DNA of 64,000 bases, from positions 549,053 to 613,052 of the forward strand of contig NZ_JAAHIH010000001.1 in assembly GCF_010671925.1 (NCBI RefSeq), written 5' to 3'. A model generated the notes under the pieces. The model searched no databases and was not told the origin of the DNA. It saw only the letters and a program-made list of their open reading frames with translations. Positions 5,742 through 50,838 of this stretch are shown here, in pieces. Made by a program: the position numbers and the translations under genes. This stretch comes from Moorena sp. SIOASIH (GTDB lineage: Bacteria > Cyanobacteriota > Cyanobacteriia > Cyanobacteriales > Coleofasciculaceae). How positions within the stretch are numbered: the first letter of the stretch is position 1; each line of letters starts with the position of its first letter.

Positions 5742-5903
5742 CATTTGAGTTTAAAGGGAGCAGGGAGCAGGGAGTAGGGAGCAGGGGGAAGAGTGTCAGG
5801 ATAGGGAGAAGAAGTAGTTGGGGAGAATTTGGTATCTTTAAATGCATTGTCTTGATGCAGCCGCTCATAGTGGAAACCACACCACTTGCTCCCCACCCTC
5901 CTC

Positions 5904-5975
5904 ACTCCCGACTCCCGATTCCCGATTCCCGACTCCCGACTCCCGACTCCCGACTCCCTACTCCCTACTCCCTGT
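5904..5975. repeat. STRR-like heptamer repeats (ACTCCCG/ATTCCCG/ACTCCCT)
   Basis: Directly visible. A related GGGAGCA tract lies at 5755..5795. Confidence 0.9.
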
Positions 5976-8900
5976 TCACGGATCACCAACTAGCAGGAAA
6001 GCAGCCCAATAATAGGGATGCGTAAAGCTTTGTTTTCCAAATCCTGACAATTCTGAGGATAAAGCAATTTTCTTGCCAGAGCTATATAAGTGATCATTCT
6101 CGATCCGGACATTGCCTCGAATCATTGCCAACTGTGCCTGTCGCAAGGCTTCAGTTTTACTCGGTGTCTTGTTCAACTGACGGTAAAACTCTGTAGTCAG
6201 CCCCATAGCCCCTTGGTCACTGACAGACCAAAGGGTTGCTAGAGTGGAGTCAACCCCTGCCTGAAACGCTGATCCAGCAAAACCTAACTCTGCTTCCCGA
6301 TTTCCCAAAGCCGTTTGGCAAGCGCTGAGTACCAACAACTCTACTGATGGCTCATAAAACAGATTTTCCAGTTCATCGAGCCCCAGTTTTTTGTCCCACA
6401 TTTGAATATAAGAATTTTCAGGAGCTCCTCGATTAAACTGAGCATGGGTAGCTAAGTGAATGATGCCAAATTTCCGCTTTTTTCGTTGAGCCTTTAAATT
6501 TTCCAGAGTGAAGCTTTCGTTGAGAAAATAGTTACCTTCCCACAGTTTTTTGTCGATAATTGTTTCTAACTCGACTTTTACCCAAGGCAAATCCTCTTTA
6601 TCAGAAAATTGGGAGGCTCCCATCGCCAGCAGTCGCAAGGATTGAACATTGCTAAACCGAGAATAGGTCAAACTAAGGCTAGGCACCAGGCTGACACTAT
6701 AATTTTCTACTAGATAGTTCTTTTGATCGTGCAGAGCAGCCAGGGGTAGAGAGCGCAAACCCTGATCCATGGCAAATATCAGGCTCTCGATCTTATTAGC
6801 TTTTAACTCAGACTCCAACGGTCCGATCAGCCATTGGTAAAGTTGCTGAGCTGCTTTGAGATGATCCTTATCATCCAAGTTTCGGGGATTTATCAGTGTT
6901 CGATGAAAAGTCCTGGTCACAGCTAGGACTTCAGCACGATTGGCGTTATAGACTCGCCGCAGAATTGGATTACCGTCTGCTTTGATCAGCAACAGTTCTA
7001 GCTGGTCATCGCTTTGTTGTAAGCATTTTTCCGGTTCTGAAGGTAGATCAGAGGTTCGGTAACCAAATCGTCGGTCAATTTCGGCTGCTGGGATTGCCGG
7101 AGTTTGGCATCGCGTTCCTGGCAATGTCAGGGAGTTTTGGACAAAACTGACATAAATAACCCCAGTCTTGAGACCCTTCTCCCGCTCAAGCTCACGAATG
7201 CGATCGCGCACATCATTCTGAGTATAAATTTTGGTCTTGAGCTGTCGCAGAAAGTATGCCTGATATTCTTCTGTGAAGGCTTTTTCTATGCCATACACTA
7301 GGTCACTTTTAACGGTCGCCTCTAGTGTGATTGGTTGCTCTACCGGTGGTGGAACCTCTGGTGGTGTTATTGATGAGTTATCCGGTGTGGGGATTGTTGA
7401 GTCTACCTGTGGTGAAACTGCTACATCCTTCTGTACTACAACCGTTACATAATCTGGCGCTAGGACTGTAACATCATCCGGTGGTGTAACCGTTGAGTCA
7501 TCGGGTGGTAGGACTGTAACATCATCTGGTGGTGTAGCTGTGCCATCATCCGGTGGTGTAACTGTGCCATCATCCGGTGGTGTAACTGTGCCATCATCCG
7601 GTGGTGTAACTGTGCCATCATCCGGTGGTAGGACTGTAACATCATCCGGTGGTGTGACTGTGCCATCATCCGGTGGTGTGACTGTGCCATCATCCGGTGG
7701 TGTAACTGTGCCATCATCCGGTGGTGTAACTGTGCCATCATCTGGTGGTGTGACTGTGCCATCATCCGGTGGTGTAACCGTTGAGTCATCCGGTGGTAGG
7801 ACTGTTACATCATCTGGTGGTGTAACTGTGCCATCATCCGGTGGTGTAACCGTTGAGTCATCCGGTGGTGTAACCGTTGAGTCATCCGGTGGTGTAACCG
7901 TTGAGTCATCCGGTGGTGTAACCGTTGAGTCATCCGGTGGTGTAACCGTTGAGTCATCCGGTGGTGTAACCGTTGAGTCATCCGGTGGTGTGACTGTGCC
8001 ATCATCCGGTGGTGTGACTGTGCCATCATCCGGTGGTGTGACTGTGCCATCATCCGGTGGTGTACCTGTGCCATCATCCGTTGGATCTCCCGGATTAATA
8101 CTAATCTCTCCTCCTGTACCTTGGATAGCATCTAACCGTGAGTTAGATGCTATTTGTGCTCGTATTGCTTCTACATCAGTTTCGCTAGTAATGTCAGGAG
8201 CGAAGACTATGATATCACCACCATTCCCACTCCTCTGAGCTTGTGTGTTGATATCAATATCATCAAAGTTAACATTGTTTGAATCTGGAACATTAAAGGT
8301 TATGTTACCAGAATCACCACCGTTTGATGCCTCGGTAATAATTCTGAGAGTCTCACCATTTACCTGAATGCTTCCCTCTGCAGTTTCCAAGGTTACATCA
8401 CCAGAATTACTACCCCCTGTTTCTGTCGTCCTGATCGTGGTAATAATCAAACCATCATTATTACGGAATATAATGTCATCTTGAGCTGATAAGATTACAG
8501 GTCCAGCATCACCCTGATCAGAACTCGTGTCGATATTACCAATAGTGATACTCCCTTCAGATGAATTCTCTTCGAGATTAGAGAATTCTGTTCCCTCTAC
8601 GGTGACTGATTGATTAGGATCAAGATTAACTGGATTACTCAATTGATCCTCACTCAAACCTGCTCGCAAAATCAGAGAGCGGCGTTGGGTCAAATTCTCA
8701 AAATCTGGATCTGAAGTGGGAATCGAGCCAGTGGTATCTGGCTGTGTGATCTCGATATTTCCCCCCTCAATACTTCCGGTAGACTCTACTTTCAGAGAAG
8801 CTCCTGTATAATCCCCAAAGATGACATCGCCTCTAGAGATAATAATCGGGTCATAGAAGCTCAGAAAATTACCTGGTTTACCAGATAAATTCAGAATCGA

Positions 8901-10082
8901 GAAACTACCACCACTGGCAAAGTGAGCATCTCCGGAAATAATCCCATCACTAACTAAACTGAGATTACCGCCACTCTGAAAGGGTGTCTTGGGATGATTC
9001 AGTGCCAGAATATCAATGCCTAAATCCCCCTGAATGTAGAGGTCTCCTCCCGCTATAGCATTGAAGGGATTATCGAGTGTATCCCTTACCACCACTTTAT
9101 TCTGAGCCAGTAGGTTTAAGTCTTTTGTGGTAGACAGCTGGCTTTCTACTAGAGTCAGGTTATTCTTCGCGGATAGGGTTGCAGTCTCTGCGGTTACTTT
9201 TTTAGCAGCTACATCTCCAGACTCCAAAGTGATGCCTGAATCTTTCAAGGTCACAGTACCATCACCATTATCCTGGAATTCTGTGGCATGACCTACATCA
9301 GCGCCAGTTAAAAGTTCAGGCAATTGCACAGGTGTCAAAGATTGTTGGTCAGTGAGTAGGGGGTGAATTTCCAAATTGAGCAAGTGCCCCTCTTGGCTAA
9401 TTTTAACTAAACTTTCCCCTGGTACAGCAGCTACCGTAATTTTTCCCTCTTGTGCTGCCAGTTCTCCAGTACTGATCACAGTGCCACCCAGTAAGGTTAG
9501 GTTATTTCCTGGTGTCACCTCTAGCTGGCCCTGATTGATAATGGCTCCTGGTGTACCTAATGTCTCGAACCTAAACACACTAGGTGTTCCAATTAAAGAA
9601 AAGTAGTCGTTGCTACCAAAGGCACTAAACCAATTATTATCACCAAAGCCAATACCTGTAGCGGTGGTAGCGGTGAATGATCCTGGAATGTTCAGCTGGG
9701 AATCAGCACCAAAAATTATCCCCGCTGGATTCATTAAAAACAGGTTGGCGTTGCCCCCTGTGACTTGGATGAGACCGTTAATCAATGAAGCGTTGCCACC
9801 TGTAACCCGATTGAGAATGTTTTTTATACCGGGTTGAGACAAAAAATTAACAATTTGGTCTTGGTCTAAACCAAACTCCTGAAAGCTGTGAAATAGATTA
9901 GAGCCATCACCTGATCGAGTACCTCCGTCAATATCAAAGCGATTACCATCTTGGATAACTTCCGTGTCAGTAGTGCCATCGCTTTGAATCGGCTGTGCTA
10001 TTGTCGGTATAACCCAAAGAATTCCTGTCAACACATAGAGAACGCTCAGGGATTGACTAATTGGGCTCACAGCTAATTTCAT
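5976..10082 (-). CDS. Large secreted protein with four parts: signal peptide; TPS (filamentous haemagglutinin N-terminal, haemagg_act) domain; beta-helix-like G/N-rich region with a PPDDGTVT octapeptide array; C-terminal CHAT (caspase-like) protease domain
   Basis: The N-terminus [31 protein letters not shown] is a signal peptide. The TPS hallmark is …[31 protein letters not shown]… . About 36 octapeptide repeats follow. The C-terminus carries the CHAT His/Cys dyad context ([11 protein letters not shown]…[12 protein letters not shown]). Confidence 0.8.
7330..8090. repeat. 24-bp tandem repeat array (~36 copies; consensus CATCATCCGGTGGTGTAACTGTGC / …CGTTGAGT) inside the TPS-CHAT gene. It encodes (T-P-P-D-D-[GSV]-T-V)n.
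   Basis: Directly visible. Copies differ at one or two positions (G/S/V). Neighbouring copies are identical in blocks, which suggests ongoing expansion and homogenisation. Confidence 0.95.
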
Positions 10083-23448: not shown

Positions 23449-26400
23449 CTAAAAGCCATTGCCAATCATAATAAACGGTGCCCAGTAATAAGGACTATTA
23501 TAATGACTGTTGATCAAGCCTATTTGCGCTTGACGCAATGCTTCCGCTATGGTAATATTACCCTTAAGCATGGTTTGGTAAAAAGCATCCATTAGTACCT
23601 GTGTCCCTTGGTCATCAACAGACCAGAGGGAAGCGATGGTTGCTAGTGCTCCTAAGCGTTGCATCTGATAACCAAAGCCTAAAATTTCTTCACCATTACC
23701 CAAAACTCCACCAACACCAGTTTCACAAGCACTAAGCACCACTAAATTCACACCATTGAGGTTCCAGGTTTCTAAATCTCGGAGCGTAGCCAGCTCGCAA
23801 TTACCAAATAAGATAAATGAATCCTCTGGTTGACCTGGTAAAAAAGCAGCATGGGTGGCTAGATGAACAATATTGTAGTTGTTATTGTTGTTGTTGATCT
23901 GCTCAACTATAGTGCTAGGTTTAAAGTCTTGTTGAAACAGTTTTGTAGTCTCCGGAATCAGAGCTGCAATAGTTTCTACTTCAACACCAGCAAACCTTAA
24001 GCCAGAAAAGTTAAACGGACGTTTCCCTAACTGGAATTCACATTCCCCTGAGGTAAAGGCAGCAGATAGTACCCGGGGTTGCCTAGGAAGGTGATTATTG
24101 AGGTTAATGAAACTAGCAGCAGTAATAGTATTAATACTATAGCGCTCAACTAACCATTGCTCCCCATCATGGAGCGCAGCCAGAGGAACATAACGCAATA
24201 TACCATCTGGAGCATAGAGGATAGTTTGAGCTTGGGCTTTAGTAAGGTTGTCTTCAATGGGCTTAATTAGCAAGTTATAGAGTTTTTGTGCCTCTGCTCT
24301 GGCCTGATTGACTCTAATCCTATCAGTGATGGCGCGACGGAATTTTGCGATCACATCCTTGAGTTGTTCGTGATTGATCGTTACCGAATGATGGATAGGG
24401 AATGAGTCAGCAGTAACCAGTACCAGTTCCAGACGGTCTTCTAGAATTAGCGGATACAACAACACAGCGTTTTGCTCAAGCTGGCGCAAGCTATTTTGCA
24501 AAATGTCTAGATAACTGACATCCAGACGCTGTTCTCTGGCTTGTCGTCTTAGCTGTTGCACCAGTTTCACCACATCAGGACTGGAGATAAATTGCTCAAA
24601 TGATGGGCTACTATCTTGGGACTCCGTCCTCTTGAGTAGAGAATTAATCCTGTTGCTAATCCCCTGTTCCAGAGACAGCAATCCAATCCCTTCGAGTGTC
24701 TGTTCATTGCCTTGGACATTACCCAAGTAATCCTCTAATTCTTGAATTTTCAGCAAATCCAGCACTCGTTGAGCTTCAATCACTCGGTCAAATTGCAGCA
24801 ATAGGTCAGCGAGATGACGATAGGTATTAGCAACAGTTTGTGTAAAGGATTGCTGTTGTTCTTGAGGAAGTGGTTTTAACTCGTCCCGAATCTGTTCAGT
24901 CAGATTAACCGATAACTTGTAGAAAATGATGGCTAACTCAGGTTGCTTCTGTTTTTCCAGCACTTGACCGATATTGCTGAGAGTAATTCCTTCCGCTGAA
25001 CGGTCACCGATATCTCGAAAAATTACCAAAGCTTCTTGCAGCAATGCCATGGCTTGGGAATCTTGATCTGTATTAACATAAGTACCTGCAAGAGAGTTGA
25101 GAATCCGACCCTCCCCTGCTATATCACCAATCTCTTGTGCGATCGCTAGGGCTTGCTGATAAGAATTTATCGCCTTAGGATACAGACCAATACTGGAGTA
25201 AACACCACCAATCTGATTGAGAGTATTACTTTCACTGATAAGATTATTAATATCTTGAGCAATGGCTAAAGCTTGCTGATAGGATGCTAAAGCTTGGGGA
25301 TACTGATTGAGGCGTTCGTAAATGACACCAATACTGCTAATAGTCAGTCCAACCCCTGATTTATTGTCTATCTCCCGATAAATTGCTAAAGCCTGTTCCA
25401 AAAAATCTAAGGCTTTGGAGTACTGTCCTAAACCTTCATAAACACCGCCAATATTAATGAGCGTCTTCGCTTCACTAGCTGGATTACCGATTTTTTTATG
25501 AATCGCTAAAGCTTGTTGATAATAGTCTAAAGCTTGGTAATATCGACTACGATTATAGTAAACTCCACCAATAGTATCAAGAGCATTAGCTTCCCTGGCG
25601 GGATTGTTAATTTCAGTAGCAATAGTTAAAGATTGCTGGTAGGATGTCAAGGCTTGATCATACTCTCCGAGATTTTCATAAACGGTGCCAAGGTTGTTAA
25701 GGGTATAACTAACACTATCCTTATCTCCTAACTCATTAAGAATAGCCAAGGCTTGTTGATGATACTCTAGCGCCTGTGTATAGTCACCAGTCTGACCAGC
25801 AATCAATCCTAAATTATTATAAATTCGTCCAACACTTGCTCGATTCCCAATTTCTCTAGCAATCACCAGTGCTTTTTGATAGAAATCCCTGGCTAGGGAA
25901 TACTCACCACTATTGTAGTAAACTCCACCAATATTATTAAGGGTGCGTCCTTCATCAAAGGGATTATTAGTTTCCCGACGAATCCCTAAAGCTTGCTGGT
26001 ATAACTCCAAAGCTTGGTCATAGTCACCCTGATTAGCATAAATTGCAGCAATATTATGCCAGGATTCCCCGATGATATCACGATTACCAATAGTGGTAGC
26101 CATCTCCAAGGCTTGCTGGTGTAACCCTAGTGCTTGAGAATAGTTTCCTAGACGGCGATAAACAAAGCCTATATTATTAAGGGTTTCTGCTTGTCCTCTA
26201 CTATCTTCTAGTTTTTGACGAATTATCAAAGCTTGCTGCAATGTGTCTAACGCTTTTGGATAGTCACTCAATCCGATGTACACTTGACCGATGTTGTTGA
26301 GAGTTGCAGCAACACCCGCTTTGTCGTTTAGTTGTCTACGAATTGCTAAGACTCGTTGATAGGTGGCTACGGCTTCACGAAACTGTCCCTGACGAAATTG

Positions 26401-26631
26401 TTGGATACCTTGTTCAAAGAGTTGGTTAGCAATAGAAGTTTTGCGGACGCGAAACCTGACACCACTGCGCCAATCCTGTTTCGGAATGCTGGGGAAATCC
26501 TGTGCAACAGCTTTGTCAAGTTGTAGGAATACTGGTGGGGTATGTACATCCAACGTTACTCCCAGAATTATTAATAATTCTAGGAGAGTTTTAACTGGAG
26601 TGATATCATAAAAACCTGGAGGCATAGGCAC
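23449..26631 (-). CDS. TPR-repeat protein with C-terminal CHAT (caspase-like) domain
   Basis: 1060 aa. About 12 tetratricopeptide repeats (…A[LI]..YQQAL.I…). The C-terminus carries the CHAT dyad context (YNIVHLATHAAF… VVLSACETGVG). Confidence 0.8.
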   Translation of the reverse strand: MPMPPGFYDITPVKTLLELLIILGVTLDVHTPPVFLQLDKAVAQDFPSIPKQDWRSGVRFRVRKTSIANQLFEQGIQQFRQGQFREAVATYQRVLAIRRQLNDKAGVAATLNNIGQVYIGLSDYPKALDTLQQALIIRQKLEDSRGQAETLNNIGFVYRRLGNYSQALGLHQQALEMATTIGNRDIIGESWHNIAAIYANQGDYDQALELYQQALGIRRETNNPFDEGRTLNNIGGVYYNSGEYSLARDFYQKALVIAREIGNRASVGRIYNNLGLIAGQTGDYTQALEYHQQALAILNELGDKDSVSYTLNNLGTVYENLGEYDQALTSYQQSLTIATEINNPAREANALDTIGGVYYNRSRYYQALDYYQQALAIHKKIGNPASEAKTLINIGGVYEGLGQYSKALDFLEQALAIYREIDNKSGVGLTISSIGVIYERLNQYPQALASYQQALAIAQDINNLISESNTLNQIGGVYSSIGLYPKAINSYQQALAIAQEIGDIAGEGRILNSLAGTYVNTDQDSQAMALLQEALVIFRDIGDRSAEGITLSNIGQVLEKQKQPELAIIFYKLSVNLTEQIRDELKPLPQEQQQSFTQTVANTYRHLADLLLQFDRVIEAQRVLDLLKIQELEDYLGNVQGNEQTLEGIGLLSLEQGISNRINSLLKRTESQDSSPSFEQFISSPDVVKLVQQLRRQAREQRLDVSYLDILQNSLRQLEQNAVLLYPLILEDRLELVLVTADSFPIHHSVTINHEQLKDVIAKFRRAITDRIRVNQARAEAQKLYNLLIKPIEDNLTKAQAQTILYAPDGILRYVPLAALHDGEQWLVERYSINTITAASFINLNNHLPRQPRVLSAAFTSGECEFQLGKRPFNFSGLRFAGVEVETIAALIPETTKLFQQDFKPSTIVEQINNNNNNYNIVHLATHAAFLPGQPEDSFILFGNCELATLRDLETWNLNGVNLVVLSACETGVGGVLGNGEEILGFGYQMQRLGALATIASLWSVDDQGTQVLMDAFYQTMLKGNITIAEALRQAQIGLINSHYNSPYYWAPFIMIGNGF

Positions 26632-27818: not shown

Positions 27819-29211
27819 ATGAAATACACGTATCAATATCGACTATATCCAGAGACTCAACAAACACTCACACTGAACGAGTGGCTGCGAGTTGGTCGAT
27901 ATTGGTATAACCGGATGTTGGGTGAGCGTTTTGATTGGTGGGAGAAAAATAGATGTCCGGTCAATGCCTGTCCATTAATCTGTTACCTTCCGGAGCTTAA
28001 AGATCAGCCCAATTTATACAGCCAGAAAAAGCAACTTCCAGTTATCAAGAAAGACTTGGTTAAGATTGGATGGTCTGGAGAGTTGATAGACTTTACTGAG
28101 GTTTATTCAACTGTTTTGCAAGATGTCTGTACAAGAGTAAAAAACGCTTTTAACAGGTTTATAGCAGGTGACAAAAATGGTAAACGCAGTGGCAAGCCTC
28201 GATTTAAGAATGTTGCCAGATATCGGACGTTAAACTTTCCAAATGCTTATAATTCTTGGTTAAAGTTCTGTACTGTTAACGGAAAATGGTTGTTTGTTCA
28301 AGTTCCTAAAATTGGTTTGATTAAGCTGAGAATACACAGACCGTTACCTGATAGTGCAAACTTAAAACAGCTATCAATTACAAGGAAAGCTGACGGATGG
28401 TACTGCAACCTGAGCCTAGAGGATAAGTCCGTGCCGGAGTTCAACCCTGATGACATTATTCCTACTTGGGAAAACTCAATTGGAATGGATGCTGTTCTAG
28501 ATAGAGGCTTTTATCTAGCAATATCCGATGGCAAGAAACTCCCCTCGCTTAAACCACTTCGTCGGAATCAAGACAAGTTAACCAAAGTTTCTCAACGGAA
28601 AAATAAGCGTAAAAAAGGAAGTAAAGCCAGACGTAAACTAGCAAAACGGGAAGCCCGTATTCATCAACAGATAGCTAGGAGTCGTGAAGATTTCCAGTAC
28701 AAAACTGCTCATCAACTGGTGAATACAGGTAAGAAAGTCTTCTTTCACGAGAAGCTGAACCTCAAGGGTTTAACTCGTCGCAATACTCCTAAACGAGGGC
28801 GAGATGGTACGTTCTTATCCAATGGTCAATCATCAAAATCAGGACTTAACAAGTCTTGGCTAGATGCAGCCTTTGGTCAGTTCTTTGAAGTGCTGGGTCA
28901 GGTAGCCGCAAAAGAAGGGCGCCAGTGTAGTCGAAGTCAAGCCAAATTACACATCTCAACTCCTCTCTTATCGAGATGAATTTGTGTTCACCGACCGAGA
29001 TATGCGAGAGTATTTCGATGAGGAACTAAAGCTGATTGTCGATAGAGATGTCAACGCATCAATCAACATAAAGCGAGTCGGGCTGGATGTGTTCCCGACT
29101 ATAAAACGCCGTAGAGGGAAGCCTGTAGTTGTTGAATCTACTACTAATAGTACCTCGCAGGAAGCTCTGACCGCTCTTTATGAGCATCAGAAGCCCACAC
29201 TGAAAGCGTAG
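27819..29211 (+). pseudogene. tnpB: TnpB (IS605 OrfB) disrupted by a frameshift near 28925. The RuvC-III segment continues in another frame and no zinc-finger cysteines are seen.
   Basis: ORF1 ends …VAAKEGRQCSRSQ… . The alternative frame reads …VVEVKPNYTSQ…FTDRDMREYF… and joins the 28984 ORF, which carries DRDVNASINIKRVG. Confidence 0.7.
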
Positions 29212-31566: not shown

Positions 31567-31947
31567 TCAATCGAGCCAATTAAGAATCCCTTGGATTTCC
31601 TCGACCAATTCCATAGGTTTAAACGGCTTGGTAATAACTCCAGTTACCCCCAAATCTAGAAACTGCTTTTGCTCGCTGCTCCTAGCTTTAGCTGTTAGCA
31701 AAATTGTTGGGATGTCCGCCGTTACTGCATTAGCTTGTAACTGTCGAAAGGTAGCCGGTCCATCCAGCTCGGGCATCATTACATCTAGCAGAATAGCATC
31801 AGGCTGATCTGCCTCAGCCTTAGCTAATCCCTCCTTACCAGAAGCAGCTGTCAACACTTCCCACCCTGCTGCTGCTTCTAGAGAAAATTGGATGATTTCT
31901 CGAACCCCATCATCATCATCAATCACTAAAATGCGCTTAGTTGTCAT
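31567..31947 (-). CDS. CheY-like single-domain response regulator. Its start overlaps the stop of the upstream histidine kinase by 11 nt.
   Basis: MTTKRILVIDDDDGVREII… with DAILLDVMMPELDG and TAKA…KP. Confidence 0.8.
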   Translation of the reverse strand: MTTKRILVIDDDDGVREIIQFSLEAAAGWEVLTAASGKEGLAKAEADQPDAILLDVMMPELDGPATFRQLQANAVTADIPTILLTAKARSSEQKQFLDLGVTGVITKPFKPMELVEEIQGILNWLD

Positions 31948-34816
31948 GGTTCTCACCTTCTGCTGCTGCTGTTTCTTTCGGTAAGGTAAAATAAAAACTG
32001 CTGCCTTCACCAACAGTACTCTCAACCCAGATTTTGCCTCCGTGCTGCTCCACTATATTACGGCAAATCGCTAACCCTAAACCCGTCCCTCCCTTTTTAC
32101 GGGCATCGGAAGCATCAACCTGTTGAAAACGCCCGAATATACTTTCAAGTTTGTCAGCCGGAATTCCCCTACCTTGGTCTTTAACGGTAAATAAGATCAT
32201 GGCACTGTTTGGGTCAGGGGGTGAGGTGGTTTCTGGTTCCTCTGGCTGTTGCAGTTCCACTGTTAACCATAGGCTAGAACCTCTGTCTGAAAATTTAATC
32301 CCATTGCTGAGTAAATTGGTTATGACTTGAATAATGCGATCGCTATCAGCCTCGAATTCAATCTCAGATTCAATAGCTTGGGGCGAGACTTCCAATTTAA
32401 TCCCAGCTCGATTAGCCATCACCTGCACCTGATCAACAGCTTTAACCATCAACTCAGCTGCATTCACTGGCTGCTTAGACAAACGGATCTTACCAGATTC
32501 CAGACGTTCCAGCTCCAAAATATCGTTAACCAGTCGCACTAAACGCTCAGCACTGTCAGCGGCAATGCCAATTACACGCTGTCCTCGTTCAGACTGAGGT
32601 TGAATTAGACCAGTTGATAACAGGTTCAAGGCACCATGAATTGAGGTTAGGGGGGTACGGAGTTCGTGGCTGACCACGGAGGTGAATTCATCTTTCATCC
32701 GTTCAATAGCGTAGCGCTCGGTAATATCTTCCCCAATACTCATGGTGCCAATTGCCTCTCCCTGGACATTTTGGAGTAGAGTATTATTCCAAGCAATGAT
32801 TTTTTCTTGCTTTGACTTGGTGAGAATCGAGTGCTGATAGTGGGGTTGAAAGTCTGGATCTAGGATGTCCTGGAAGTATTGCTGTACTGACTTTTGCTGG
32901 GAATTGGGCAGGAAGTTTTCAAACCAGTCCTTGCCTAAAACTTCTGCTTCTGTGTACTTAGTCAATTCTAGGAAGAAGGGATTGACATACTCCACTTTAC
33001 CCTGTCGGTCTAGTCCCACCACCACCAGTCGCACATGTTCGAGAAGGCTGCGCCACCGTCGCTCTGATTCCTGTAAGCTAGCAATTAACTGGGTACGTTC
33101 TTGTTCAAATCGTTTACGTGAAGTAATATCTCGCTGCAACACTAAGATATAGCTAATGTTTCCTTGAGTATCATGAACCACTGAACAAGAGTAGTCTGTG
33201 GTAAGAATTGTCCCATTTTTGCAGACAAACTCAATTTCTTGACGATAGGTTCCCTGCTCCAGTAAAACTGGAAACTGTTGCTGGCAAATGTTTTGGTATG
33301 TGGGGGTAAAGAACTCTTCTAAGCGATTACCGATCAATTCTGATTCAGCATAACCTGACTGGTGGATGACAGCCGGGTTCACTTGCTCAATCATGCCCTG
33401 AGTATCTAATATATGGATAAAATCTGGGGCAGATTCAAACAACGAACGGAATCGTTGTTCGCTTTCGAGTAAAGCAGCTGTGCGCTGTTGAACCCTAATT
33501 TCTAATTCTCGATTGAGTTGTTGTAATTCTCGATTGAGTTGTTGCAGTTGAGCTTCTTGCTGTTTACGCTCCGTGATATCCGTAGTGATGCCGTGAAGAT
33601 GTACAGAGGTGCCATTATCACGCCTAACCACACGAGCGCGATCGTTCAGCCAGCGAATTTCTCCATTACTGAGCTGAATTCTATATTCTAAATCCCACGA
33701 TTCACGACGATTTTCTTGAACAGCTCGCCATGCTTTCTCAACATGCTCAAAATCTTCTGGGACAATAAACTGTCGCCATAGGTTGTCTTGATCGCTGAAT
33801 AGCTCGAAAGTTGGGCGACCGTAAACTTGCTCGAAGGCTAAATTAACATAGCGCAGTATCCCAGAAGGCAGTGATACTGACCACACCACGTCTTGAAGAG
33901 AACTCATAATTGCTCGGAGCCGCTCTTCGTTGGACTTAAGTGCCTTTTCATTTTCTTGAAATGCTTCTTCTGTCTGCTTGCGTACGCTAATATCCGTAAT
34001 TGAGCCAACCACCCGCACTGCATCACCTGCTTCATTCCAAAGTGCTTGTCCCTGGTCAAGAATCCATTTGTAGCTGCCGTCGTTGCACTGTAAGCGATAC
34101 TCTTGAACGTAATAGGGGGTTTTCTGAGCCAAGTGATCCTTCATGGCTTTTATCACCTGGTCTACATCATCGCGATGAATGTGTGTCCGCCATTGATGGT
34201 TATAGTTTCCGATGTCGTAGTTTTCATCATACCCCAGCATTTCCTTACATCGGCTGGAGAAAAAGGTTTCATTGGTTTTGGGGTTCCAGTCCCAAATTCC
34301 CTGATTAGCTCCCTGTAGTGCCAATTGCCAGCGTTGCTCACGTTTTCGTAAGGATTGCTCTGCCAAAATACGCTCTTCAATTTGAGATTTTAGCTCCTGG
34401 TTGAGCTGCTCAAGCCTAGCCAGACTGGGAAAAGCGAGGACTCGAGGTAGAACAGAGAATAAATTTATGGCAGTGTAGACAGAAACTATAGCTGTAATTG
34501 CTTTAATAGAGCCTGATAGCCAGTAAGCTGGATACCAAAGCGTCCATAGTTCCATCAGGTGAGTGGTGCCAGAGGCAATAATCAACGCCCCAAACAAAAT
34601 CAAGAGTCCCTTGAAAGGCAGATCCTGCCGCTGCCTAATCAAGTACACTAGCAGTATGGGAATCACATAGTAGGCTAGGGTAATTAGGGAATCACTGATC
34701 AGGTGCAGCCAGATCAAGTTAGGCTGCTGGAGGTAGCAGTTGCCTTGGAGAATAAACGTTTCGGCAAATAGGAGATAGTCAAAGAAATTGATCATAATTA
34801 GGTTGACAATTGACAT
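31937..34816 (-). CDS. Hybrid-type sensor histidine kinase: N-terminal ethylene-receptor (ETR1)-like three-helix membrane domain, multiple PAS/PAC domains, HisKA and HATPase_c
   Basis: The N-terminus …ISDSLITLAYYVIPILLVYLIRQ…FGALIIASGTTHLMELWTL…AITAIVSVYTAINLFSVLP aligns with the ETR1 ethylene-binding domain. The H-box is EFTSVVSHELRTPLTSI, followed by a G-box region. Confidence 0.75.
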   Translation of the reverse strand: MSIVNLIMINFFDYLLFAETFILQGNCYLQQPNLIWLHLISDSLITLAYYVIPILLVYLIRQRQDLPFKGLLILFGALIIASGTTHLMELWTLWYPAYWLSGSIKAITAIVSVYTAINLFSVLPRVLAFPSLARLEQLNQELKSQIEERILAEQSLRKREQRWQLALQGANQGIWDWNPKTNETFFSSRCKEMLGYDENYDIGNYNHQWRTHIHRDDVDQVIKAMKDHLAQKTPYYVQEYRLQCNDGSYKWILDQGQALWNEAGDAVRVVGSITDISVRKQTEEAFQENEKALKSNEERLRAIMSSLQDVVWSVSLPSGILRYVNLAFEQVYGRPTFELFSDQDNLWRQFIVPEDFEHVEKAWRAVQENRRESWDLEYRIQLSNGEIRWLNDRARVVRRDNGTSVHLHGITTDITERKQQEAQLQQLNRELQQLNRELEIRVQQRTAALLESEQRFRSLFESAPDFIHILDTQGMIEQVNPAVIHQSGYAESELIGNRLEEFFTPTYQNICQQQFPVLLEQGTYRQEIEFVCKNGTILTTDYSCSVVHDTQGNISYILVLQRDITSRKRFEQERTQLIASLQESERRWRSLLEHVRLVVVGLDRQGKVEYVNPFFLELTKYTEAEVLGKDWFENFLPNSQQKSVQQYFQDILDPDFQPHYQHSILTKSKQEKIIAWNNTLLQNVQGEAIGTMSIGEDITERYAIERMKDEFTSVVSHELRTPLTSIHGALNLLSTGLIQPQSERGQRVIGIAADSAERLVRLVNDILELERLESGKIRLSKQPVNAAELMVKAVDQVQVMANRAGIKLEVSPQAIESEIEFEADSDRIIQVITNLLSNGIKFSDRGSSLWLTVELQQPEEPETTSPPDPNSAMILFTVKDQGRGIPADKLESIFGRFQQVDASDARKKGGTGLGLAICRNIVEQHGGKIWVESTVGEGSSFYFTLPKETAAAEGENHDN

Positions 34817-35497: not shown

Positions 35498-37480
35498 TTA
35501 TTTATCTGACAACATTTGATTCTTCTGTGCTATCGTTCTTATCCTTAGTTTACTGCGCTCAATGCGATTCAACACCCGAGCTAATAGCTCCGGTGCCCTG
35601 ATTGGTTTTTGTACGTAATCATCTGCCCCTGCCATAAACACTTGCTGCACAGTTTCAGCATCTTGAACAGCTGATAGAAACAGCACGGGTAACTCACCCC
35701 AGCGAGGGTCATTGCGTACCACCTGGCACAGGTCAATACCGCTAAACTCCGGCATTTCCACATCCAAAATCAGTAAATCTGGACTACACTGCTCTATGGT
35801 TTCCCAGAACTGTTGTGGATCGTTTAGCAAAGTCAATTCAAATCCCCAAGGTTCTAGCACAGTGCGTAGCTGATCCAGGATTTGAGGGTCATCGTCAACA
35901 ATCAATAGCTTTGCCTGTGGTGGACCGGATTGTTGCAACGCTTTAGCGATCGCAGCCATGACCTTTTGAGGTGCTACAGGCTTCTGAAGAAAACCCCTTC
36001 CTCCCAAACGAGCCACTCTGACTCGTTCAGCAAAACTCTCTTGAGCCGTAAATACTACCACAGGTACAGGGGGCTCAGTTGTTTTCAGTTCTTCTAACAG
36101 CTCGAAACCATTTCCCGCTGATTCAGGAAAACACAAGTCTAGTAGTACCACATCGGGGCGGTTACCAGCAATTGCTTTTCTCCCTTGAGATATATCACCC
36201 GCCACCTCAACCTGAATTTTCCAGGCTGCTAGCTCTGATGCCAACCCTTGCGCTAGTGTTAAATCATCATCCACAATCAGTAGTCGTGGGGAGTGGGGAA
36301 TCGGGAATCGGGAGTAGGAAGTGGGTAGTGGTTGACTTTGAGTAGGTTTTGGAAGGTTATCCTCGGTCTCTAGTTCTTGTCGTAGTTCTACCACTAGTTG
36401 AGACAGATGTGCTATAGTCTCTTTGCTAGCTTTTTTCCCAGATTGCAATATCTCCTCAATTTCACGGGATTTGAGAGAGGCTTGATCAAATCCAAAGCTA
36501 CCGAGGGAACCGGCTAGGGTGTGTGCCTCCCGTAAAGCCTCCTGTCGCAACTTTCCGGTAAGATTACCATCTCGCCAATCCGTCACCGCCTGCTCCAATA
36601 CATTGACCCGCTTGATATACTTTGACTTCTGCTGCTGCCAAATGGCACTTAATCCTGATTGCTTTGGTTCTTCGGATTGAGCATTAGGGACTGGGGAAAG
36701 GGAACTATCACTCTTGACCTTTGAGTGTTTCAGGTTAGATGGGGTCTTTTTCCCGGCTTTTTTGCCTTTGTTTTTCTCAGTCTTTGTTTGACCTGAACCT
36801 TTCTCAGGCGGTTGTCTGAGCCGATAACCCAAGCCATAGACGGTTTCAATTAAATCATTTTTGGCTCCAGCTTCCTTGAGTTTCCGCCGTAAACTTTTGA
36901 TATGAGCTCTAACGGCATTTTCTGTAGGGGGTTCTTCAAAAGACCAGAGATTATCTAGCAGGAAACTTTGGCTAAAGATGCGGTGGGGATTCCGTAAAAA
37001 CAGCTCTACTAGACCATACTCCTTAGGTGTCAGATGTAATAGTTCCTGATCGTAGCTGACCTGGCAGTTACTGGGGTCAAGGTGCAGTAATCCCCACTCA
37101 AGCACCGGGAGTAGGGGGGTGCTGCTGCGGCGCAGCACTGCTCGAATTCTGGCTAATAATTCAGGTATGTCTAAGGGCTTGACTAAATAATCATCCGCTC
37201 CTGCGTCTAAAGCTTCGACTTTGTTAGTGCTGGTGTCTTGGGCAGTGAGCAGTATAATCGGAGTGCGATCGCGTGCGTTTCGCAGCTGCTTGCACAAATC
37301 AATCCCCGTGAGCCTGGGGAGCATCCAATCTAGCAAAATCAAGTCATACTTAAATATCTCTGCTAGTGCTATCCCCTCATCCCCATCTGTAGCTAGATCA
37401 ACCTGATAATGTTGACTAGCTAGCGCTGCCGTTACCACTTTGGCAATACCTTCATCGTCTTCTACTAGCAGGATTCTCAC
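35498..37480 (-). CDS. Multi-domain response regulator: REC, OmpR-type winged helix, HPt-like domain, REC, REC
   Basis: REC1 is MRILLVEDDEGI…DLILLDWMLP. The wHTH is …LTPKEYGLVELFLRNP…VYGLGYRL. HPt-like is EALREAHTLAGSLGSFGF. REC2 is LLIVDDDLTLAQ. REC3 is KLLIVDDDPQIL…LILDVEMP. Confidence 0.75.
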   Translation of the reverse strand: MRILLVEDDEGIAKVVTAALASQHYQVDLATDGDEGIALAEIFKYDLILLDWMLPRLTGIDLCKQLRNARDRTPIILLTAQDTSTNKVEALDAGADDYLVKPLDIPELLARIRAVLRRSSTPLLPVLEWGLLHLDPSNCQVSYDQELLHLTPKEYGLVELFLRNPHRIFSQSFLLDNLWSFEEPPTENAVRAHIKSLRRKLKEAGAKNDLIETVYGLGYRLRQPPEKGSGQTKTEKNKGKKAGKKTPSNLKHSKVKSDSSLSPVPNAQSEEPKQSGLSAIWQQQKSKYIKRVNVLEQAVTDWRDGNLTGKLRQEALREAHTLAGSLGSFGFDQASLKSREIEEILQSGKKASKETIAHLSQLVVELRQELETEDNLPKPTQSQPLPTSYSRFPIPHSPRLLIVDDDLTLAQGLASELAAWKIQVEVAGDISQGRKAIAGNRPDVVLLDLCFPESAGNGFELLEELKTTEPPVPVVVFTAQESFAERVRVARLGGRGFLQKPVAPQKVMAAIAKALQQSGPPQAKLLIVDDDPQILDQLRTVLEPWGFELTLLNDPQQFWETIEQCSPDLLILDVEMPEFSGIDLCQVVRNDPRWGELPVLFLSAVQDAETVQQVFMAGADDYVQKPIRAPELLARVLNRIERSKLRIRTIAQKNQMLSDK

Positions 37481-49308: not shown

Positions 49309-50838
49309 ATGACTACTAATTATAAAACCATAGCCCCATATCCCTATGAAAAATCAAATCTCATGCCTCTACGTTGGCTATTTTACTTGTGTTTAGGGAT
49401 ATCTGTTAATGCCGGAATTTGGGGCTTAACATTTTTTTATTTGAAATCAGCTAAGCCAACTTATAACAGTACATGGGCAGTATCACTTCCTGTCTCAGGC
49501 TCATCCACCAGAATTAATATCCCAGAATTAGGGGGAGCGAGTTCAGATGTTAGGTCACCATTTGGCGATCGCTCCCATGACCCAAGGGAAAAGATGAAAT
49601 TCATTGCGGAAAGTAAGCCGGTACTAAAGGATGCTGCCAGTGTACTGAACATGTCCCGTGAAGAGTTGGGCAAGCCTAGGGTCAAAATAGTAGACAATTC
49701 AACTATGATGGCCTTTGAGATCAAAGGAGACTCTCCTGAGGAAGCGCAACAGAAAGCTTTGGCTATGTACCAGGCTTTCCAGGATAGACTTGAACAACTT
49801 AGACAAGAAGAATTAGTAGACAATCAGCTACCAATTCAAGCTGATTTGGAGGCAGCTAAGAAAAATTTAGCAGATATTCAAAGAAGCCTGTCTGAACACA
49901 AAGCTAGAACTGGATTGAACTCGAAAGAACAAGTTAACCAGCTATCATCCACTATAGAAAGTTTACGACAACAACAAATCGATTTGTTGGCCCAAGGGCG
50001 AGAAGCAAAAGCCAATCTCAGCAACCTCTCAGCTAATCTAAAGTTGTCATCTCAGCAAGCTGCTGATGCTTTTGTACTTAAGGCTGACCAGATATTTCAG
50101 CAAACCCTAAGGGAATACAGTCAGGCTACCGCAGCCCTGACGGTTTTGAGTTCCAAATACGGTTCCAAGCATCCATCTGTAGTGGATGAAAAAAGCAAGC
50201 AAGAGAGTGCTAAAGCAGCTTTGCTAGAGCGTAGTCAATCTCTGTTAGGTCGCCCCATGTCTTTGGCAATTATCGACCAGCTCAGTGTTAACTCTGGGCC
50301 TGAAACTGGTTCTTCCCGGGAAAATTTGCTCAGGCAAATTGTTGAGGTGGAAGCACGGCAAGAGGGTGTGGAAGCTAGGGCGTGGGTATTAACCAACCAG
50401 ATTGCTGAGCTGGAAGCCAAACTCAAACAAATGAGCCAGGATGCCTTGAGGATGGAGATCCTAGAACGCAATATGCGCATTGCGGAAACTATCTATGCTT
50501 CAACCTTAACTCAATCAGCGATTGGTCGATTCAACCAATCCCTTTCCTATCCTCAAGTTCAGCTGCTAGCTGAACCCAGCTTACCCCCAGACGCGATAGC
50601 ACCGAAAAAGTCATCGGCTTTACTTGGTGCAGCAGCTGGTTCCTTCTTAATTAGTGCAGGACTATTTTTACTCTGGTTACGTCCCCATTTACAAGGTAAA
50701 TCACAACCCTCAATGTACGGCAAAGTAGAATCGTTTAACTCTGATGTTCCACCCTTACGTTCTCAACCATCAAATAATAGCTTCACAACATCTAATAGCT
50801 TCACATCGCCAATCGGGAACCAAAGAAAAGATTTCTGA
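49309..50838 (+). CDS. Polysaccharide co-polymerase (Wzz/GumC-like chain-length determinant) without a kinase domain
   Basis: 509 aa. TM1 is LRWLFYLCLGISVNAGIWGLTFFYL. A long coiled-coil periplasmic region follows, and TM2 is LLGAAAGSFLISAGLFLLWL. Confidence 0.7.
   Translation: MTTNYKTIAPYPYEKSNLMPLRWLFYLCLGISVNAGIWGLTFFYLKSAKPTYNSTWAVSLPVSGSSTRINIPELGGASSDVRSPFGDRSHDPREKMKFIAESKPVLKDAASVLNMSREELGKPRVKIVDNSTMMAFEIKGDSPEEAQQKALAMYQAFQDRLEQLRQEELVDNQLPIQADLEAAKKNLADIQRSLSEHKARTGLNSKEQVNQLSSTIESLRQQQIDLLAQGREAKANLSNLSANLKLSSQQAADAFVLKADQIFQQTLREYSQATAALTVLSSKYGSKHPSVVDEKSKQESAKAALLERSQSLLGRPMSLAIIDQLSVNSGPETGSSRENLLRQIVEVEARQEGVEARAWVLTNQIAELEAKLKQMSQDALRMEILERNMRIAETIYASTLTQSAIGRFNQSLSYPQVQLLAEPSLPPDAIAPKKSSALLGAAAGSFLISAGLFLLWLRPHLQGKSQPSMYGKVESFNSDVPPLRSQPSNNSFTTSNSFTSPIGNQRKDF

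Follow-up and report, generated by a model that had tools for sequence, protein, structure and literature searches.

A 24-bp in-frame minisatellite probably encodes a disordered tether between the beta-helix shaft and the CHAT protease module of a predicted Moorena exoprotein

The Xr region of Staphylococcus aureus protein A is encoded by 24-bp units and serves as a strain marker, being the basis of spa typing. Its octapeptide repeats, the number of which depends on the strain, are located between the functional domains and the anchoring region of the protein (PMC7896290). A comparable array of 24-bp units is present in the stretch of 64,000 nucleotides of the Moorena sp. SIOASIH genome considered here (contig NZ_JAAHIH010000001.1, positions 549,053 to 613,052; hereafter the window), where it lies inside a gene encoding a CHAT domain-containing protein. 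This array is best explained, with a probability of about 0.8, as an in-frame minisatellite (variable-number tandem repeat, VNTR) that encodes a disordered, acidic, Pro/Thr-rich tether running from a TpsA-type shaft to the CHAT module of an exoprotein predicted to use two-partner secretion (TPS). The repeat is a familiar kind of feature, an ordinary evolutionary product that opens no new question. The Xr region differs from it in belonging to a Gram-positive, sortase-anchored protein, in being rich in Lys, Glu, Gly, Asn and Pro and in usually having far fewer copies, and the two share no sequence.

The Ser-Asp R region of the staphylococcal Clf/Sdr proteins and the Pro/Thr linkers of glycoside hydrolases are low-complexity, length-variable spacers, which project or uncouple a functional domain. 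They differ from the Moorena tether in unit length, chemistry and secretion routes, and some of them are glycosylated. Bordetella pertactin, a type V beta-helix protein, carries in-frame Pro-rich repeats (GGxxP, PQP), and their copy number is strain-dependent. However, pertactin is a classical autotransporter and its repeats are short loops on the helix, not an interdomain tether of 250 aa. The proline-rich region (PRR) of Bordetella FhaB resembles the tether in consisting of repeats on the C-terminal side of a TpsA protein, with 27% Pro (PMC4542190) compared with 24% in Moorena; its repeat number differs slightly between strains and it has been proposed to be extended (PMC4542190). The PRR is placed, however, within a degraded prodomain of ~1200 aa and not directly before a protease domain. 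Moreover, Bordetella species share 87% identity in the PRR, but in Moorena the linker has been replaced between strains, and no homology between the two was detected. The C-terminal module of the Moorena protein has its fold and His/Cys dyad in common with separase, HetF and Csx29, the TPR-CHAT protein of type III-E CRISPR. These three are cytoplasmic and regulated by TPR or partner proteins, whereas the Moorena module is fused through the tether to a shaft and a secretion domain.

The gene is the longest open reading frame (ORF) of its region, and its product is identical to P0122, that is NEO35230.1 / WP_293090952.1 of Moorena sp. SIOASIH, annotated as "CHAT domain-containing protein" and encoded on a 1.72-Mb contig. 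The gene and the parts of its product are located as follows:

5976-10082, minus strand: complete gene with TPS domain, beta-helix, repeat linker and CHAT domain, 1368 aa plus stop codon
9357-9989, minus strand: TPS secretion domain, aa 32-242 (Pfam PF05860, E 2.8e-49; NCBIfam TIGR01901, E 1.5e-25)
8091-9356, minus strand: beta-helix shaft, aa 243-664, with the conserved motif GEISINP at its end (AlphaFold2 and Foldseek)
7311-8090, minus strand: full segment predicted to be disordered, aa 665-924 (AlphaFold2, composition and Uversky plot)
5979-7310, minus strand: C-terminal folded protease module, aa 925-1368 (Pfam, AlphaFold2, Foldseek and invariant alignment columns)

The NCBIfam model TIGR01901, matched by this protein, describes the filamentous-haemagglutinin N-terminal domain. 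Ahead of the TPS domain stands a hydrophobic N-terminus with the sequence VIPTIAQ/P, which, judged by eye, looks like a signal peptide. Pfam gave no match between the TPS and CHAT domains. The AlphaFold2 model of aa 1-720, built with 36 homologues, was all-beta over aa ~40-663, and its predicted local distance difference test (pLDDT) score was mostly above 85 from aa ~280 and fell to ~30 from aa 668. The shaft model was matched by Foldseek to the TpsA beta-helices of HxuA (4rt6_A, E 1.9e-8), HMW1 (2odl) and EtpA (8cpk), with E values between 2e-8 and 2e-4 for the three and low TM-scores (~0.2). With its TPS domain and right-handed beta-helix shaft, the protein can be assigned to the putative TpsA proteins, and its export is predicted.

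The C-terminal module was characterized by several features. The Pfam CHAT profile (PF12770) covered aa 1076-1367 with an E value of 2.1e-67 and 288 of the 289 profile positions, and in the AlphaFold2 model of aa 641-1368 a confident alpha/beta module (pLDDT ~90) followed after aa 924. Foldseek matched this module to Csx29 (8eex_B, E 5.4e-12 over ~420 columns) and also to separase (E 1e-7), CED-3 (E 9e-4) and SAVED-CHAT. In an alignment of 37 sequences, His1209/His1213 (motif HLATH) and Cys1255 (LSAC) were invariant. The profile match, the His and Cys residues and the separase/Csx29-like fold place the module among the CHAT, clan CD caspase-like peptidases. The Pfam and NCBIfam domains, the AlphaFold2 models, the Foldseek matches and the invariant residues therefore give the order of the parts as a signal-like N-terminus, the TPS domain, the beta-helix shaft, the disordered repeat tether and a complete caspase-like protease module. 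An earlier reading of this DNA, made from the letters of the sequence only (the sequence-only reading), had taken the repeat for a linker between the beta-helix body and the CHAT domain, and the models and structural matches on both sides of it, together with a pLDDT of ~30-40 in the repeat itself, support this.

The array itself is composed of a clean core bordered by degenerate units, which are listed here in the direction of translation:

8067-8090, minus strand: degenerate first unit, GDPTDDGT, with six mismatches to the consensus and identical in M. producens 3L
7443-8066, minus strand: core array of 26 clean in-frame 24-bp units, aa 673-880, encoding [V/G/A][T/L]PPDD[G/S/V]T
7851-7994, minus strand: block of six Ser-type units within the core, five of them DNA-identical, absent from the JHB and 3L arrays
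7347-7442, minus strand: four progressively degenerate octads on the C-terminal side, a tail with QVDS[TK]

Tandem Repeats Finder (TRF) reported the array at 7465-8084, with a period of 24, 25.8 copies, 88% matches and 0% indels. The consensus of the core unit is GTTACACCACCGGATGATGGCACA; with up to three mismatches, it was matched 16 times in the window, always in the array, and not once in 100 shuffles. The 24-bp tandem array is thus found where the sequence-only reading had placed it, its upper boundary (8090) being exactly that of the degenerate first unit, and in the gene frame the minus strand reads VTPPDD[G/S/V]T, in agreement with the octad that had been proposed. The copy number of about 36 was an overestimate. 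Only 26 units are clean, and cutting 7347-8090 in the gene frame from aa 665 gives 1 + 26 + 4 = 31 octads at most; even the interval originally assigned to the repeat holds only 31.7 units. The description of the copies as near-identical and differing at single positions is correct for the protein but not for the DNA, in which 14 distinct unit types were recognised, any two of them being 82% identical on average, and in which 5 nt distinguish the Ser-type from the Gly-type unit (GATGGCACA versus GACTCAACG).

Along the core, the unit types form the string BCCDEEEEEFGHFIFFCJKFFFLMNO. It contains eight adjacent pairs of identical DNA units, whereas shuffled strings had 2.6 ± 1.4 (p = 4e-4). Besides the six Ser-type units, the core has Gly-type units in runs and scattered Val-Leu units, and so the arrangement of variants in blocks had been seen correctly. 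The Ser-type unit is private to the SIOASIH genome and at the DNA level resembles the conserved tail octad QVDST. The significant clustering of identical units fits slippage or unequal recombination, and the array most likely grows and shrinks by replication slippage or by unequal recombination between its units. The block structure is likewise consistent with the recent expansion by slippage or recombination that was suggested before.

To describe the variability of the array, orthologous loci were compared. A genome scan gave four Moorena loci (3L, SIO3I8, SS36440bin_2 and SIO3H5) with the same neighbours, mnmE on one side and an amine oxidase gene on the other, and with a nucleotide identity of 90-97% along the gene and its flanks outside the linker. 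The linker was the one segment that did not align in three of the four loci, and in 3L it aligned in many registers. According to TRF, 3L carries 21.2 copies of the 24-bp unit and SIO3I8 12.1 copies of a 30-bp unit, while 11.4 copies of the 30-bp unit are followed by 4.4 copies of the 24-bp unit in SS36440bin_2, and 30.6 by 2.6, respectively, in SIO3H5. The related 30-bp unit is present in other Moorena genomes in 9-34 copies. Counted in the proteins, the strict octad motif occurs 25 times in SIOASIH (26 clean units), 23 times in JHB, 21 times in 3L and in each of three SIO metagenome-assembled genomes (MAGs), 13 times in SIO3E2, four times in P0003 and once elsewhere. The two assemblies of 3L have identical arrays. 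The length of the array therefore differs between strains in syntenic orthologues, as the sequence-only reading had expected. The shortest linker among the orthologues has 123 aa and the longest 390 aa. Within a unit family, the 30-bp family included, lengths always change in steps of complete units, so that the frame is kept. Even genomes that are at least 99.7% identical outside the linker may differ in it: 3L and SIO3E2 are eight units apart, and SIO3I8 and P0135 three 10-aa units.

When the 24-bp unit was compared with the 30-bp unit of SIO3I8, 20 of the 24 positions matched with a 6-bp indel (p ~0.003 against shuffles), which suggests that both unit families probably descend from one unit. 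The possibility that the 30-bp repeats are the 24-bp DNA read in another frame or on the other strand was rejected; the alternative frames read HHRMMAQL and PSSGGVTV, not GTDGG. The start of the linker (GDPT) can be recognised in the genomes of the 24-bp family and in SIO3I8, and its end (QVDS[TK]) in all Moorena orthologues examined, the first tail octads being variable. Since both edges are recognisable across strains, the expansion is internal. A metagenome scan with the 23-nt core of the unit returned 0 matches.

These comparisons bear directly on the proposal that the array is phase-variable, that is, a contingency locus in which the protein is turned ON or OFF as repeats are gained or lost. 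The presence of a long tandem repeat within the gene of a surface or secreted protein, and heptamer repeat arrays in the upstream intergenic region, might point in this direction. However, 24 bp is a multiple of three, a change by whole units keeps the frame, and TRF found 0% indels. The complete orthologues are all intact ORFs, none of them frameshifted, and the only broken one, L003, contains a run of N. Phase variation of the coding array is therefore excluded by the 24-bp unit, which leaves the frame unshifted, and as an explanation of the locus it is extremely improbable.

Instead of neutral slippage, diversifying selection might be behind the turnover of the linker, which would then be an exposed receptor or epitope involved in recognition by phages, grazers or kin. 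The linker is the sole part of the locus that has been replaced between lineages ~92% identical elsewhere, and lineage-specific variants such as the Ser block have been amplified, which is what such selection could produce. Fast neutral turnover is, however, the default for low-complexity repeats, and four close strains have the same copy number; selection of this kind is thus considered quite unlikely.

The physical character of the encoded segment was assessed from its structure prediction and composition. In the AlphaFold2 model of aa 641-1368, no secondary structure was present up to aa 924 and the pLDDT was 29-41. The composition of aa 665-912 is dominated by Pro (24%), Asp (23%), Thr (21%) and Val (14.5%), with a net charge of -57, and these residues fall on the disordered side of the Uversky charge-hydropathy plot. 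The contour length of the tether amounts to ~77 nm as polyproline II and 89 nm when fully extended, whereas a worm-like chain with a persistence length of 0.4-3 nm has a root-mean-square end-to-end distance of 8-23 nm. The term "stalk", understood as a rigid rod, does not suit a segment that is predicted to be disordered, and "tether" is the better term. Similarly, the separation of 30-40 nm between the CHAT domain and the beta-helix body, as previously assumed, is probably too high as a mean, although it can be reached within the contour. No significant match to a repeat family was obtained for the linker in Pfam or NCBIfam, the sole sub-threshold match (autotransporter adhesin BigA) being far below the cut-off. 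Ca2+-binding repeats of the RTX type were not found either: the period is 8 aa, the motif GGxGxDxUx is absent and there was no HemolysinCabind match at Pfam E <= 0.01. Tandem units of strain-dependent number in a non-globular segment between folded domains make this an in-frame VNTR linker.

In the very large TPS-CHAT family, the TPS and CHAT domains were combined in all of the 120 best homologues. A position-based scan for low complexity, by which the tether was located in the homologues, revealed in 82 of these 120 a segment of at least 40 aa ending ~450 aa before the C-terminus, with a median length of 88 aa and a maximum of 388. Pro made up at least 20% of the residues in 44 of the 82 segments and acidic residues at least 15% in 30, and only one was rich in basic residues. 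Spacers that are disordered and not basic are therefore common ahead of the protease module in the TPS-CHAT family, and their sequence is free to vary. The closest relatives outside Moorena have other repeats at the same position, namely ETINQEAISQ, PEPPK, DPGPELI, ETPETPPLENPELPTS and PT-type runs. When the peptide of 26 units was used on its own as a query, it gave only six weak matches, all to unrelated small proteins with 3-5 similar octads. Runs of 3-5 TPPDDGT[V/T] were noted in three such proteins of other bacteria (P0138, P0140 and P0141), some of the small proteins having hydrophobic, signal-like N-termini. With so few and weak matches, the octapeptide is not a shared module, and its occurrence in small proteins appears to reflect convergent use of a short linker. 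In loci of two distant relatives, from Spirulinaceae and Jaaginema (L015 24-7471 and L017 5953-13397), one or two TPS proteins, apparently without CHAT, are encoded directly upstream of a TPR-CHAT protein; the Pfam scan covered the L015 24-2282 ORF only, and the other TPS proteins were recognised by tblastn to the TPS region. This arrangement could be a split version of the fused TPS-CHAT architecture.

A rival explanation is that the tether has a structure of its own. It could be a functional module, either a stiff polyproline-II rod, an acidic Ca2+-binding array by which the chain is stiffened or ratcheted once outside the cell, or a site of glycosylation or of attachment to sheath polysaccharide. 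Each octad carries two Asp and two Pro, adding up to the strongly negative charge given above, and the alternative units of other strains are also rich in Asp, Gly and Thr. The marine setting of the organism is rich in Ca2+. For the Pro-rich region of FhaB, in turn, the role of an extended docking site has been proposed (PMC4542190). On the other side, the linker belongs to no significant Pfam or NCBIfam repeat family, its length varies three-fold, and its unit varies even within the genus, with relatives using the different units listed above. An unconserved unit sequence argues against a specific ligand, and a structured module is accordingly regarded as unlikely.

Another explanation assumes a topology like that of FhaB or CdiA, in which the tether would stay threaded through the outer-membrane transporter and across the periplasm, with the shaft outside and the CHAT module held inside until a signal arrives. 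The pore of TpsB admits only an unfolded chain, and with a contour of 77-89 nm the tether would be long enough to cross the envelope easily. In FhaB, the prodomain with its repeat region of 27% Pro stays periplasmic while the shaft is on the surface (PMC4542190). However, homology to the prodomain of FhaB was not detected, the ORFs scanned in the window and beside the relatives included no TpsB, and the large variation in length is unexpected for a precise membrane-spanning role. Such a topology seems unlikely. In the literature, nothing specific to TPS-CHAT proteins was found, the nearest being a one-line mention in a Trichodesmium preprint, and neither a paper combining "CHAT domain" with "filamentous hemagglutinin" nor an experimental study of the family was found. 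The C-terminal caspase-like domains of polymorphic toxins have been interpreted either as toxins themselves or as peptidases that bring about release (PMC3482391).

For the preferred explanation, an in-frame VNTR encoding a disordered tether, the following course of events may be proposed. A tether of ~250 residues joins the beta-helix shaft to the C-terminal caspase-like CHAT module. Selection would constrain only its general character: it should not be globular, should be acidic or neutral with no basic residues, and should stay in frame. As a flexible spacer, it could uncouple the folding and the reach of the protease module from the shaft, and, being unfolded, it could also thread the transporter pore during export. 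A change in copy number would alter the length of the tether and not the expression of the protein.

Several points weigh against this explanation. No match to TpsB (ShlB or POTRA_2) was found among the large ORFs scanned in the 64-kb window, nor in the flanking ORFs of seven related loci, although its gene may be located elsewhere in the genome. The secretion, location and protease activity of the product are predicted properties, and a polyproline-II rod or a structure stabilised by metal would look the same to AlphaFold as a true random coil. Four of the five very close 3L-like genomes share the copy number 21. Near-identical strains can nevertheless differ in the linker, so that the array is variable, yet not hypermutable on the shortest timescales. 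Moreover, several of the comparison genomes are short-read MAGs, in which repeats may have collapsed. In L003, a run of N (~8460-8600), that is a scaffold gap, lies in the array, and an 842-aa partial protein (P0011) ends inside its own 30-bp repeat.

The last of these points raise the question of whether mis-assembly accounts for the array or for its copy number. The SIOASIH genome is itself a MAG, the two broken cases show that short-read assemblies fail at this place, and the Ser block contains the longest exact self-repeat (134 nt); eight 127-mers in 7301-8150 are non-unique. However, every 151-mer of this interval is unique and the 14 unit types follow a non-periodic order. An in-frame array of this type also recurs in independent assemblies, including the 9.65-Mb genome of JHB, 3L twice and several MAGs. 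Therefore, the array as a whole is resolvable, and a short-read assembler could miscount only the Ser-type units, so that at most their number may be off. Mis-assembly is thus a highly unlikely explanation, but copy numbers derived from MAGs call for caution, the linker being the spot where short-read assemblies of these cyanobacteria, which are rich in natural products, break or collapse.

Besides the gene frame, three further ORFs were reported over the array:

7460-7789, minus strand (sense): artefactual ORF in the +1 frame, periodic HHRMMAQ[L/S], broken where Val-Leu units bring a TAA codon
7805-8131, minus strand (sense): artefactual ORF in the +1 frame, a by-product of the repeat
7540-8238, plus strand: artefactual ORF, the sole antisense one, periodic PSSGGVTV, its frame open in all three unit types

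Tandem Gly- or Ser-type units contain no stop codon in the frames of these ORFs, which are therefore by-products of the repeat unit. In the sense +1 frame, a TAA codon comes with the Val-Leu unit, precisely at the gap between 7460-7789 and 7805-8131. The sequence-only reading was right to treat all three as artefacts, but only 7540-8238 is antisense, and the other two lie on the strand of the gene.

The DNA around the gene contains other repeats. In the 3' gap between the convergent amine-oxidase and TPS-CHAT genes, two heptamer arrays are present, AGGGAGC x4.6 at 5755-5786 and ACTCCCG x9.9 at 5904-5972. They are inverted complements; their arms of 47 nt show 77% complementarity and are separated by 125 nt. 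Their sequences resemble cyanobacterial short tandemly repeated repetitive (STRR) elements and could form a long hairpin or a terminator. The upstream intergenic region, between the start of the gene at 10082 and the divergent mnmE at 11175, contains further arrays at 10462-10907 (AGCTATC x3.9, a 20-mer x2.2, a 25-mer x2.3 and CTGACCA x5.9), and in the flanks the alignment with M. producens 3L breaks down only at ~10488-10856. Any effect of repeats on expression would come from these upstream arrays and not from the coding repeat.

Another CHAT protease, 1060 aa long and belonging to the classic TPR-CHAT type, is encoded 13 kb away at 23449-26631 on the minus strand. The plus-strand ORF at 27819-28979 is similar to OrfB/TnpB of the IS605 family (HTH_OrfB_IS605 and OrfB_IS605). 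At 31937-34816 (minus strand) lies the gene of a histidine kinase with an N-terminal domain like that of ethylene receptors (ETR1_N) and multiple PAS domains, adjoined by the gene at 35498-37480 (minus strand) for a protein with three receiver domains, Hpt and Trans_reg_C. Two paralogous class-III aminotransferase genes, at 14681-15973 (plus strand) and 16931-18184 (minus strand), flank a D-glutamate-cyclase-like gene at 15980-16939, with a TauD-family dioxygenase gene (13573-14319) just upstream; together they may constitute a small cluster for the modification of amino acids. The 509-aa ORF at 49309-50838 on the plus strand had no Pfam match at E <= 1e-5.

A more far-reaching possibility is that the tether is an adaptive, fast-evolving element of a large and uncharacterised class of secreted caspase-like proteases from cyanobacteria, with its length tuned to how thick the envelope or sheath is, or a threaded relay like that of FhaB, with the CHAT module held in the periplasm until an external cue. 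This is judged improbable. If it were true, the reciprocal expansion of the 24-bp and 30-bp families across Moorena lineages would reflect selection and not drift.

Summarizing, the length of the array in this gene offers a ready-made marker for telling Moorena strains apart. The plan common to most close members of the TPS-CHAT family, with a shaft, a tether and a protease, moreover shows where one domain ends and the next begins and which segment is open to shortening, exchange or tagging.

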